From the sequence record PV648359: 64,000 nucleotides of DNA. One strand, given 5' to 3'. The position numbers and the translations under genes are program-made. Position 1 is the first letter of the stretch. Every line of letters starts with the position of its first letter. Origin of the DNA: Escherichia phage LF82-1. The notes under the pieces were generated by a model. The model was given only the letters and a program-made list of their open reading frames with translations, did not search any database and was not told the origin of the DNA. This document shows positions 15,472-16,943 of this stretch, in pieces.

Positions 15472-15891
15472 TTATGCGAAAGCAGCCGGGCTATATTTTT
15501 TAATTTGGAATTCAGGAACTACCATGAACTGTCCAGCGAAAACGATGTTATAAAGCTTAACACCATCTTCTACCCAACGGTCGCTAATAAATCCAGCGAT
15601 TTGCTTAGTTTTCCATGGTGTTCCATCAGTTGCCGCAGCAATAGTGAATTCATGGTCTTTTTCAACAGAAACTGATCTGCATAGTCCCCATTTGAACGAT
15701 TTTTCTTCCGGTTCAATGAATTGGCTTTTAACATAACCAATGTTGCCATCAGCATCACGAACTTTAACTTCATTGCGACCAAAAACCGGATCACTTACAT
15801 AAAGAACTTCAACCAACTTACCAGCAACTTTAGAGCGAGAAGCATCTGATACGTGTACATAATCACCAATAGAGAGATTTGCAATATTCAT
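15472..15891 (-). CDS. hypothetical protein, paralog family member 1
   Basis: 139 aa; shares C-terminal motif GFISDRWVEDGVKLYNIVFAGQF with the two ORFs upstream. Confidence 0.55.
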   Translation of the reverse strand: MNIANLSIGDYVHVSDASRSKVAGKLVEVLYVSDPVFGRNEVKVRDADGNIGYVKSQFIEPEEKSFKWGLCRSVSVEKDHEFTIAAATDGTPWKTKQIAGFISDRWVEDGVKLYNIVFAGQFMVVPEFQIKKYSPAAFA

Positions 15892-15900
15892 AATAATTCC

Positions 15901-16386
15901 TTAAGCTTTACGAGGAGACACATAACGAGTGATTTCGGATTCTTTAACAACTCTGAAGTCACCTAAGAATACGATATTGTATAACTTTTCACCATCTTCA
16001 ACCCATTGGTCACTAATGAAGCCGCACATAGTATCAGTTTTGCTTGGATAACCGTATTCATCGATGAAGTCAAATTCTTTATCAGTCTGGAATTCAACGC
16101 CTTTGCAAAGGGCCCATTTGAACTGTACATTATGCTCTGTAGATTCAACTTTTTCTCTTGAAGCAAAAGCACTACTCACAGGCGTTTCCAAGAACTTTGC
16201 ACGAACATAAGCAAATTTGGTTTCCTGTGTCCCAAAACTAGGAATAATACGAACTTTTACCTCAGAATCTTCATCTTTAACGCCTTCTTTAAGTTGAATA
16301 CTTACAACTTCGACCAATTTTCCTGCGGCTTTAGAACGAGATTTGTTAGATACGCGAACGATTTCACCAATAATACCAAGATTCAT
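15901..16386 (-). CDS. hypothetical protein, paralog family member 2
   Basis: ORF track 15901..16449; start at internal Met (MNLGIIGEIV..); motif GFISDQWVEDGEKLYNIVFLGDF. Confidence 0.5.
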   Translation of the reverse strand: MNLGIIGEIVRVSNKSRSKAAGKLVEVVSIQLKEGVKDEDSEVKVRIIPSFGTQETKFAYVRAKFLETPVSSAFASREKVESTEHNVQFKWALCKGVEFQTDKEFDFIDEYGYPSKTDTMCGFISDQWVEDGEKLYNIVFLGDFRVVKESEITRYVSPRKA

Positions 16387-16414
16387 AATTTCTCTCTCTT
16401 TGTTTAAATTGAAT

Positions 16415-16447
16415 TCATTATACTCCATCCATCCTTGGATATACAAC
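16415..16447 (-). promoter_or_regulatory. degenerate copy of the TTATACTCCAACCATCCTTGG promoter family, for ORF 15901..16386
   Basis: cattatactccatccatccttggatatacaa; -10 TATAAT intact, -35 diverged. Confidence 0.4.
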
Positions 16448-16448
16448 A

Positions 16449-16943
16449 TTAATTAAGGATATTAACCACAGCACTACGTGGAACTACACTAAAATCACCT
16501 GCATGAACAACGTTCAGAAGTTCAACACCGTCTTCAATCCACTGGTCAGTTACCCATCCATTTACTGGACCTGCGAACGGGCGTCGAATTGAAACATATT
16601 TACACAGCAAATCAGTAGGCTCAATAGGCTTAATCAGAGTACCGTACATACAAGCGATATCCATATCAATACAGATGTCTTTAACGGGTTCTACTTCTTC
16701 AATCAACAGTTCAAAGTCTGTGCTTGGAAGGGCGGTAGTAGAAATTGTACCATATGAATTTTTAATTTCTAAGAATAACCAAGGGCCTTCAGCTTGTTTG
16801 ATGAAGTTAACAATAGTGAAACTATTGCCTTGAGTGGCACCTAAAATTTCACAAAACTTTTCGTAAGCTCGCACTGAAGCACTGTACCAGTTGATTTGTT
16901 TTTCGTCTTTCAGGATGTAAGTAGCCGTAGTATTGATATTCAT
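16449..16943 (-). CDS. hypothetical protein, paralog family member 3
   Basis: 164 aa; C-terminal GWVTDQWIEDGVELLNVVHAGDF related to the two downstream ORFs. Confidence 0.5.
   Translation of the reverse strand: MNINTTATYILKDEKQINWYSASVRAYEKFCEILGATQGNSFTIVNFIKQAEGPWLFLEIKNSYGTISTTALPSTDFELLIEEVEPVKDICIDMDIACMYGTLIKPIEPTDLLCKYVSIRRPFAGPVNGWVTDQWIEDGVELLNVVHAGDFSVVPRSAVVNILN

Follow-up and report, generated by a model that had tools for sequence, protein, structure and literature searches.

Tandem motB.1, motB and motB-like genes with a common C-terminal domain in Escherichia phage LF82-1

Three tandem genes of Escherichia phage LF82-1 encode proteins that are homologous over about 57-70 residues at their C-terminal ends. 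The DNA that we analysed (the window) is a stretch of 64,000 nucleotides from record PV648359, and we are fairly confident that the locus within it holds motB.1 - motB - motB-like, the early-gene cluster of T4-like phages of the RB69 type (Mosigvirus). The initial annotation, which described three tandem paralogs with a common C-terminal block, was correct on this point; it did not recognise the genes as MotB.1, MotB and MotB-like. We stress that the trio has already been described: the paralogy, including the extra motB copy of RB69, is published, and a Pfam model exists.

The locus and its promoters

The window is Mosigvirus (RB69-like) DNA, 100% identical to Escherichia phage LF82-2, and its neighbouring genes are named here after phage Shf125875, which is 99.7% identical. 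The three genes are co-oriented on the minus strand, with the fused 60+39 topoisomerase subunit gene (11702-13519) on one flank and dexA (17010-17687) on the other, and the gene order is dexA - motB.1 - motB - motB-like - motB.2 - cef. The MotB.1 homolog, C164, occupies 16449..16943 and has 164 aa; the MotB ortholog, B161, occupies 15901..16386 (161 aa, ATG at 16386); and the MotB-like second paralog, A139, which is of the RB69 ORF010c type, occupies 15472..15891 (139 aa). The mechanical ORF of the middle gene is longer (15901-16449, minus strand, 182 aa). Homology to the T4 MotB start indicates that the true start is the ATG at 16386, which gives the product of 161 aa. The 21 extra codons overlie promoter-like sequence (16417..16445), which would account for this spurious N-terminal extension.

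A sigma-70-type, T4 early-like promoter is predicted 5' of C164 (16975..17003, minus strand; TTTACA, a 17 nt spacer, TATAAT), with 11/12 consensus matches in a pattern match. A second predicted copy, CCAAGGATGGATGGAGTATAAT, has a weak -35 element, overlaps the end of C164 and lies upstream of the B161 start (16417..16445, minus strand); over 48 nt, it matches the promoter 5' of C164 at 75% identity. In T4, a promoter-like GTTTACA...TATAAT precedes motB at the corresponding position. By pattern match, the spacer and -10 motif CCAAGGATGGTTGGAGTATAAT is present in 4 copies in the window versus 0 expected, and the same promoter motif is also found at 58331 and 59351. Co-duplication of the promoter with the gene is ruled out by the presence of this 22-nt motif at two distant sites of the window; the motif would therefore be the early-promoter consensus of the phage, not a duplication scar. 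A pattern search found no promoter belonging to A139 itself, which is separated from B161 by a gap of 9 nt.

Homology and domain architecture

The pairwise alignments were assessed by BLASTP with composition-adjusted statistics: A139 and B161 align over their full length (42% identity over 154 columns, E = 7e-31), A139 and C164 over 79 columns (32% identity, E = 9e-11) and B161 and C164 over 36 columns (44% identity, E = 3e-10). All three proteins exceed the 25-bit gathering cut-off of PF17613 (MotB, 'Modifier of transcription'), at 81.5 bits for A139, 182.2 for B161 and 35.3 for C164, and a profile-profile comparison (hhalign) of the MotB-type and MotB.1-type alignments gives a probability of 98.3% and E = 1.9e-14 over 80 aligned columns. 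The common region therefore begins farther upstream than the initial annotation saw, at the 'LC..V' strand. The block is non-repetitive and is neither too short nor too low in complexity to be significant; chance or low-complexity similarity is ruled out by the BLASTP, Pfam and hhalign statistics.

The C-terminal motifs quoted in the initial annotation are found in all three proteins (GFISDRWVEDGVKLYNIVFAGQF in A139, GFISDQWVEDGEKLYNIVFLGDF in B161 and GWVTDQWIEDGVELLNVVHAGDF in C164), each of which contains the core motif G[WFY][IV][ST]D.W[IV]E[DE]G..L.N[IV]V..G.[FY].V[IV]. On the minus strand, the shared motif covers 15511..15594 in A139 (aa 100-127, GFISDRWVEDGVKLYNIVFAGQFMVVPE), as defined by the invariant columns of the alignment, 15940..16023 in B161 (aa 122-149, GFISDQWVEDGEKLYNIVFLGDFRVVKE), from the BLASTP pairs and the alignment, and 16476..16559 in C164 (aa 129-156, GWVTDQWIEDGVELLNVVHAGDFSVVPR). 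The 40 family members compared all agree at the columns D, W, E, G, L, N and V. Structure prediction (AF2) models the C-terminal block as a small five-stranded beta-barrel, and in the A139 model, as assigned by DSSP, the motif comprises the end of strand 2 together with strands 3 and 4, with turns at EDG and AG.

B161 is the clearest MotB: it matches PF17613 (E = 8.5e-54) and phrog_1671 (E = 3.2e-70), is 58% identical to T4 MotB over its full length (E = 1.7e-59), and its counterpart is annotated motB in Shf125875 and RB69. A KOW-like N-terminal domain (aa 1-66) with the pattern SRSK.AG+LVEV is followed by an acidic linker and the C-terminal domain (aa 87-161). A139 (PF17613, E = 8.1e-23; phrog_1671, E = 8.8e-52; 39% identity to T4 MotB; AF2 model with a mean pLDDT of 86) has the same layout and the same N-terminal pattern, but its N-terminal loop is shorter and the linker is nearly absent. 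The layout of T4 MotB (NP_049626) is likewise that of B161 and A139; all three are early-gene neighbours of cef and dexA, and the N-terminal motif SRSKAAGKLVEV and the C-terminal motif WVEDG.KLYN.VF are common to them. Relative to T4 MotB, A139 lacks about 22 residues, in the loop of the N-terminal domain and in the inter-domain linker.

C164 is built differently. It matches phrog_2333 over its full length (E = 1.3e-82) and PF17613 over residues 84-159 only (E = 1.3e-8). Its AF2 model (mean pLDDT 78.5) has an N-terminal small beta-barrel with one helix (aa 1-85), a linker (aa 86-107) and the shared core (aa 108-164; 16452..16622, minus strand; PTDLLCKYVSIRRPFAGPVNGWVTDQWIEDGVELLNVVHAGDFSVVPRSAVVNILN). 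The N-terminal part, modelled with a pLDDT of about 83, has strands at residues 8-11, 42-49, 55-61, 67-73 and 80-83 and a helix at 26-37, whereas the linker motif IDMDIACMYGTLIKP is of low confidence (pLDDT < 50 over residues 86-107). Lacking the KOW-like pattern of MotB proper, which is 'Category 1' of Patterson-West et al. 2021, this N-terminal domain is of the MotB.1 type, which Kim et al. 2025 placed in the GoF/Frd.2 'LSm-like' group (PMC12152347), a group characterised by a bent five-stranded antiparallel beta-sheet; among the top 50 Foldseek matches of C164 in the PDB, Tudor and KOW barrels lead and there are no Hfq or LSm proteins. A neighbouring 141-aa ORF (13583-14008) and GoF both match phrog_622, and this ORF also has a weak phrog_2333 match (E = 7e-4). 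The core of the C164 type has 20 invariant columns across 33 MotB.1-type proteins, and that of C164 is 74-86% identical to proteins with unrelated N-terminal parts. The N-terminal block noted earlier in two of the copies is real in A139 (VSDASRSKVAGKLVEV) and B161 (VSNKSRSKAAGKLVEV) but absent from C164, and the description of the N-termini as diverged suits only the former pair, the N-terminus of C164 being a different domain. These comparisons indicate that C164 is a paralog of A139 and B161 at the level of the domain only, a domain chimera and not a diverged copy.

T4 MotB.1 (NP_049627) is 37% identical to C164 (residues 3-136, E = 2e-26). C164, whose predicted N-terminal barrel has five strands, has a complete C-terminal barrel and a 22-residue insert, the IDMDIACMYGTLIKP linker, that the T4-type proteins of 143-145 aa lack. 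The gene order in T4 differs (dexA - motB.2 - motB.1 - motB - cef). RB69 has all three genes in the order seen here (ORF010c, motB, motB.1), A139 being 99% identical to ORF010c, and Patterson-West et al. 2021 reported two motB copies and one motB.1 in RB69 and a C-terminal domain shared by MotB and MotB.1 (PMC7827196). A 29-aa ORF is listed with these genes in that paper (PMC7827196); two single-T insertions break the motB.1 of the RB69 reference into ORFs of 132 and 29 aa, whereas the gene is intact here.

A 1-nt insertion truncates the annotated T4 MotB.1 within the shared motif, leaving 119 aa. The extra G in the T4 reference is absent from 13 other T4-named records and from RB55 and RB59, and the peptide WIEDGVELLNVVHAGEYSVVPR would mark the 143-aa form of T4 MotB.1 as against the 119-aa annotation. 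The motB.1 of the T4 reference seems to contain a sequencing error, and published studies of a synthetic MotB.1 of 119 aa may have used a protein without about 3 of the 5 strands of the C-terminal domain.

Fold and possible function of the shared domain

The shared module of about 57-70 residues would be a five-stranded beta-barrel whose core strands carry G[WF][IV][ST]D.W[IV]EDG..L.N[IV]V..G.F.VV, joined in B161 and A139 to a predicted KOW-like N-terminal barrel with SRSK.AGKLVEV and in C164 to a different predicted N-terminal barrel. Among PDB entries, both AF2 models most closely resemble tandem Tudor and KOW (SH3-like) barrels (TM 0.27-0.45, E about 1e-3 to 1e-2), and two small beta-barrels in tandem, as in both models, are found in the tandem Tudor of 53BP1, in Spt5 KOW6-7 and at the N-terminus of RapA; at 10-17% identity and these TM values the resemblance is weak and speaks to fold class, not family membership. 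A fold search of BFVD returned only MotB-family and generic SH3/KOW proteins. No solved structure of a relative was found in the PDB, the best sequence match having E = 0.91.

By analogy with T4 MotB, the most likely function of the trio is that of early nucleoid-binding proteins that disturb H-NS silencing. In the reports on T4 MotB, the protein is described as binding DNA tightly and without sequence specificity, as co-purifying with H-NS/StpA on DNA and as toxic on over-expression (PMC6070864, PMC7827196). Like T4 MotB, B161 would be abundant early in infection, bind DNA irrespective of sequence and alter the binding of H-NS, and it may de-repress H-NS-silenced genes and raise the burst size. 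T4 MotB is, however, basic (net charge +5.8), while B161 (-2.4) and A139 (-1.3) are not, so the DNA affinity of the slightly acidic B161 may differ; the net charge of C164 is -9.4. At the domain level, the N-terminal domain of B161 carries +3.5 and its C-terminal domain -4.3, the C-terminal domain of A139 is neutral (0.0) and the core of C164 carries -3.1. Going by charge and conservation only, the basic KOW-like N-terminal domain would be the main site of DNA binding. The neutral-to-acidic C-terminal barrel would be a common protein-interaction or self-association module that gathers the three N-terminal domains at one target or in one complex, A139 perhaps being a specialised second nucleoid binder and C164 a non-DNA-binding partner, possibly one that binds RNA or protein. 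Given its neutral to acidic charge in this phage, the shared domain is in our view more likely an interaction module than a DNA-binding surface. In keeping with association, T4 MotB.1 appears as both monomer and dimer on SDS-PAGE when no reducing agent is added; against it, AlphaFold3 predicted no confident homomultimer for T4 MotB.1, although the truncated reference sequence was used, and T4 delta-motB.1 had no burst-size or latent-period phenotype (PMC12152347).

A different reading, which we regard as possible though rather doubtful, is that the shared domain itself binds nucleic acid in the manner of an OB-fold or cold-shock protein, so that all three would be DNA-binding nucleoid proteins differing only in accessory N-terminal domains. 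Patterson-West et al. 2021 placed the C-terminal domain of MotB in the OB-fold class by HHpred and considered that either MotB domain could bind DNA (PMC7827196); moreover, nucleic-acid binding is common among small SH3-like and OB barrels, and the C-terminal domain, with its 20 invariant columns, is the most conserved part of the family. Nevertheless, the C-terminal domains here have the neutral to acidic charges given above and C164 is acidic overall, the invariant residues of the family are core or acidic (D, E and D included) with no K or R, and the 50 best PDB matches to each model (whole-chain queries, weak scores) include no cold-shock entry and no OB-fold such as the C-terminal domain of eIF5A, Tudor, KOW and SH3-like barrels being dominant. 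An acidic, SH3/Tudor-like barrel argues against the shared domain as a DNA-binding surface.

Age, distribution and recombination

The pair of MotB and a MotB.1-type gene is present in about 750 phage records, and a third copy of the A139 type (at least 80% identity) in 207 of 777 records from Mosigvirus and Tequatrovirus, including Tequatrovirus RB6; T4 has no A139-type gene. A profile search of 1.84 billion representative proteins returned only 31 clusters at E <= 1e-3, the clear relatives among which have a KOW-like N-terminal domain and the C-terminal domain, while two long matches, of 842 and 2121 aa with E about 1e-3, are probably spurious. These searches indicate that the family is confined to T4-like phages.

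The initial annotation spoke of a local expansion of the gene family. The genes are indeed tandem homologs of one family, but the expansion is neither specific to this genome nor recent. A recent lineage-specific tandem duplication, with expansion still under way in the LF82-1 phage, could appeal to the adjacency and common orientation of the genes (A139 and B161 9 nt apart, B161/C164 overlapping the neighbour's promoter) and to the near-identical promoter motif before both C164 and B161. This motif, however, recurs at 58331 and 59351, A139 and B161 are only 42% identical as proteins and saturated at synonymous sites (dS about 1.4; 1.36), A139 orthologs occur in the 207 records that include RB6, and the MotB/MotB.1 pair occurs throughout the T4-like coliphages. 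Between the A139 and B161 DNA, no more than 72% identity over 67 nt is left, with no long identical tracts, which rules out recent duplication or gene conversion. We consider this explanation very improbable, and the distribution and divergence data already refute it.

Also very improbable is that A139, C164 or both are motB copies in decay that have lost their function, as might be suggested by the normal burst size and latent period of T4 delta-motB.1 in the laboratory (PMC12152347), the frameshifted motB.1 of the RB69 and T4 reference records and the missing A139-type gene of T4, since the ORFs are intact and have hundreds of intact orthologs, dN/dS is 0.03-0.15 for A139 against its orthologs and 0.30 for C164 (overall range 0.03-0.30), the C164 core is 81% identical to that of RB6 despite a dS above 1, and the T4 frameshift is limited to one reference sequence. 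The data point instead to an old duplication with domain replacement, the copies being kept by purifying selection.

The N-terminal domain of B161 is T4-like (77% identical to that of T4), RB69 carrying a different N-terminal allele, and its C-terminal domain is only 49% identical to that of T4; the pattern is reversed with respect to RB6 (63% and 84%, respectively). Hybrid genes that combine a MotB N-terminal domain with an A139-type C-terminal domain are found on several independent contigs. Phages have evidently exchanged these domains through recombination at the boundary between them, and this domain-level mosaicism, together with the natural MotB/MotB-like hybrids, marks the cluster as a recombination hotspot.

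A more speculative idea, which we think unlikely, is that the C-terminal barrel is a hetero-association module through which MotB, MotB-like and MotB.1 form mixed oligomers on the nucleoid. Mixed oligomers would link KOW-like domains that bind DNA with an LSm-like domain that possibly binds RNA, and single deletions would therefore have little phenotype. If this were true, the cluster would encode a phage-built composite chromatin remodeller, whose mix of subunits would vary between phages through domain shuffling.

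Three MotB-family genes between gene 39 and dexA

The window comes from a Mosigvirus, an RB69-like relative of T4; over 14800-17800 it matches Escherichia phage LF82-2 at 100% identity and Shigella phage Shf125875 at 99.7%. In order of transcription the genes are dexA, C164, B161, A139, a 174-aa motB.2 homolog, cef, goF, 39.2, a 141-aa ORF and the fused 60+39 topoisomerase subunit. The three ORFs of 15472-16943 are co-oriented on the minus strand: C164 (16449-16943, 164 aa), a middle ORF (15901-16449) and A139 (15472-15891, 139 aa). Called mechanically, the middle ORF encodes 182 aa; the ATG at 16386, homologous to the T4 MotB start, yields the 161-aa product B161, and the 21 extra codons overlie promoter-like sequence.

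The initial annotation read these genes as tandem paralogs with a common C-terminal block, and the paralogy is upheld by pairwise BLASTP, which finds significant similarity in all three pairs (E = 3e-10 or better). A139 and B161 share 42% identity over their whole length (E = 7e-31), and each matches C164 in the C-terminal part only (E = 9e-11 for A139, 3e-10 for B161). All three proteins exceed the 25-bit gathering cut-off of Pfam PF17613 (MotB), with scores of 81.5 (A139), 182.2 (B161) and 35.3 bits (C164). A profile-profile comparison of our MotB-type and MotB.1-type alignments gave 98.3% probability and E = 1.9e-14 over 80 columns. The homologous region extends further upstream than the block first noted, starting with the strand FKW.LC..V in MotB and DLLCK.V.I in MotB.1, followed by a hairpin that carries an insertion of about 12-14 residues in MotB-type proteins. 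The block VSD/N.SRSK.AGKLVEV, attributed to the N-termini of two of the three copies, is present in A139 and B161.

The MotB ortholog is B161, which shares 58% identity with T4 MotB (E = 1.7e-59). A second MotB-like protein, A139, is the counterpart of RB69 ORF010c (99% identity, against 39% to T4 MotB). As the homolog of MotB.1, C164 is 37% identical to the T4 protein (E = 2e-26) and matches phrog_2333 (E = 1.3e-82). The three-gene arrangement is already known through Pfam and PHROG families and from publications that include the RB69 layout. Patterson-West et al. 2021 (PMC7827196) described a common C-terminal domain and different N-terminal domains in MotB and MotB.1, suggested that one arose from the other by duplication, and credited RB69 with two copies of motB, a single motB.1 and a peptide of 29 aa that matches the C-terminal core.

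The 174-aa motB.2 homolog (14888-15412; T4 counterpart at 4162-4662 of the compared T4 locus) is 33% identical to T4 MotB.2. It lies between the MotB-like gene and cef here, whereas motB.2 lies between dexA and motB.1 in T4 and RB6, which constitutes a local gene-order rearrangement inside the cluster.

Domain architecture and evolution

AlphaFold2 predicts for A139 (MotB-type alignment, mean pLDDT 86) an N-terminal four-strand KOW-like barrel and a C-terminal five-strand barrel (strands 73-85, 92-108, 111-118, 121-126 and 130-133). The model of C164 (MotB.1-type alignment, mean pLDDT 78.5) starts with a five-strand barrel that includes one helix, continues with a disordered segment (86-107) and ends in a confident C-terminal core (strands 116-119, 127-137, 140-147, 150-155 and 159-163). 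The originally noted motif maps onto the end of strand 2 and strands 3 and 4 of the C-terminal barrel, with tight turns at EDG and AG/LG. The best PDB matches found by Foldseek, namely the 53BP1 tandem Tudor, UHRF1 and Agenet tandem Tudor, Spt5 KOW and the RapA N-terminus, are weak (E of about 4e-4 to 1e-2, TM 0.27-0.45), and a BFVD search returned only MotB-family and generic SH3/KOW proteins. HHpred had placed the MotB C-terminal domain in the OB-fold class (PMC7827196); since no OB-fold or cold-shock protein was among the top 50 PDB matches to our whole-chain queries, as distinct from isolated domains, that assignment was not reproduced.

In Kim et al. 2025 (PMC12152347), GoF, Frd.2 and the N-terminal domain of MotB.1 make up an "LSm-like fold" family, and our PHROG scan is consistent with this grouping: GoF (14193-14603, minus) and the 141-aa ORF adjoining gene 39 (13583-14008, minus) both match phrog_622, and the latter also weakly matches phrog_2333 (E = 7e-4), the family of C164. 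From these matches, the 39-dexA interval appears to interleave two small families, dispersed LSm-like N-terminal domains and MotB C-terminal domains, and MotB.1 is a hybrid of the two. The N-terminus of C164 is thus unlike the others, as first noted, but it is a different domain rather than a diverged version of theirs. In C164, the motif D[MF]D[IV]..[MT]Y..[LP][IV]KP (residues 86-107; 16623-16688) separates the N-terminal domain from the C-terminal core; Tequatrovirus MotB.1-type proteins of about 180 aa carry it at their very start, ahead of the LSm-like domain, and in our alignment it is absent from the T4-type proteins of 143-145 aa. Pfam pairs it with MotB 'VDFKWKLGQAIKF'. Its shifted place may mean that a domain was inserted or permuted; the AlphaFold2 model of C164 gives this segment low confidence.

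The N-terminal fusion partners of the MotB.1-type core (about 55 residues) differ widely. They include a single LSm-like domain, a longer part of about 190 residues (total protein length about 250 aa) and, in phages of Klebsiella and Enterobacter, a KOW-like domain. Identity between B161 and T4 MotB is 77% in the N-terminal and 49% in the C-terminal domain; against RB6 it is 63% and 84%. Natural hybrid genes joining a MotB N-terminal domain to an A139-type C-terminal domain (protein entries P0147 and P0149, also P0151) occur on several independent metagenome contigs (L006 1373-1894; L007 3001-3492; L008 2199-2690; L009 37-528), where the expected neighbours are present and only two MotB-family genes are left. 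These genes are evidence of recombination or deletion between tandem paralogs and, like the contrasting domain identities of B161, show recombination at the domain boundary.

The A139/B161 duplication is old, with dS at about 1.36 and 72% DNA identity left over only 67 nt. All three genes are under purifying selection (dN/dS for A139 0.03 against RB69 and 0.15 against RB6; B161 0.20-0.29; C164 0.30). They are tandem family members, as the proposal of a local expansion in the 39-dexA interval requires, but all three also occur in Tequatrovirus RB6, and the MotB.1-type C-terminal domain is found in 748 records of the phage collection. A139 matches 777 records, 207 of them with an A139-type ortholog of at least 80% identity; by best match per record none falls at 60-80% and 570 fall below 60%, the sampled rows of this last group being annotated MotB. 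An A139-type gene was not found in T4. Among 1.84 billion representative proteins, a profile search recovered only 31 clusters at E <= 1e-3, and on this evidence the family is confined to T4-like phages. As the listed relatives with a full N-terminus all combine a KOW-like N-terminal domain with the C-terminal domain, this was probably the ancestral form.

Expression signals and motB.1 reference sequences

A near-consensus promoter, TTTACA-17-TATAAT, is predicted by pattern match before C164. The element CCAAGGATGGNTGGAGTATAAT, a 22-nt spacer plus -10 motif, also precedes B161. It could be taken for a duplication scar, a reading ruled out by its four minus-strand copies in the window (16417-16438, 16975-16996, 58331-58352 and 59351-59372) against 0 expected, and we regard it as probably the early-promoter consensus of the phage with a conserved spacer. 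A139 starts 9 nt after B161 and, at pattern level, lacks a separate promoter, so the two genes probably share a transcript. The Shine-Dalgarno sequence of the motB.2 homolog is base-paired in a strong predicted RNA hairpin at 15413-15468 (minus; -24.6 kcal/mol, z = -5.8), which has a 12-bp stem, CUCCUCUGGUU/AACCAGAGGAG, and an inner stem; the hairpin loop contains the -10 element of a promoter-like site, TTTACT-16-TATTAT. In a design known from T4, read-through transcripts are translationally masked and transcripts begun inside the hairpin are translated; the predicted arrangement before the motB.2 homolog resembles it.

The T4 reference (NC_000866.4 / AF158101.6) carries an extra G, ATTGGAAGATGG versus ATTGAAGATGG in other records, that truncates motB.1 at 119 aa inside the common C-terminal motif (T4 locus L002 3643-3800, record about 7142-7299, minus; compare window 16449-16560); EDGVELLNVVHAGEYSVVPRSAVVAILN follows in the next frame. 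Over 601 nt an independent T4 assembly differs from the reference by this base alone, and 13 other T4-named records together with RB55 and RB59 have one gap there. The base occurs only in AF158101.6 and NC_000866.4, and the intact 143-aa MotB.1 form is found on 256 contigs (P0011). The extra G is probably a sequencing error. Kim et al. 2025 (PMC12152347) obtained inserts via GenScript (gene synthesis, plasmid construction), cited NC_000866.4 for the pTE103 inserts and gave the MotB.1 monomer as 13.8 kDa, the mass expected for 119 aa; they do not mention a frameshift. Published experiments on MotB.1 appear to have been done with the 119-aa protein of the reference. In the RB69 reference (NC_004928.1 record 8376-8872; locus L004 2977-3473), motB.1 is 97% identical over 497 nt to the gene of the window, which is intact, with two single-T insertions in short T runs that split it into ORFs of 132 and 29 aa, which explains the 29-aa peptide of Patterson-West et al. 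2021. The split may be genuine, making this a pseudogene, or may stem from sequencing errors in homopolymers.

Proposed roles of the two domains

T4 MotB is an abundant early protein that binds DNA tightly and nonspecifically; on DNA it is purified together with H-NS and StpA, and it changes the footprint of H-NS (PMC6070864, PMC7827196). It raises the expression of 75 host genes, of which about a third belong to the H-NS regulon, and doubles burst size. We stress that these roles (DNA binding, H-NS, burst size) are established for T4 MotB only. Going by the title of a 2021 study by Son et al., MotB reportedly also acts in DNA compaction. By orthology, B161 would act as T4 MotB does.

Net charge is +5.8 for T4 MotB, -2.4 for B161 (N-terminal domain +3.5, C-terminal domain -4.3), -1.3 for A139 and -9.4 for C164 (C-terminal core -3.1), and the family-invariant residues are D, W, E, G, L, N and V. 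Being neutral to acidic and having no conserved basic residues, the C-terminal domain is unlikely to be a nonspecific DNA clamp, and we consider it improbable, if conceivable, that this domain itself binds nucleic acid. We favour the hypothesis that DNA would be bound through the basic KOW-like N-terminal domain, and that the C-terminal barrel common to the family may serve as an association or targeting module.
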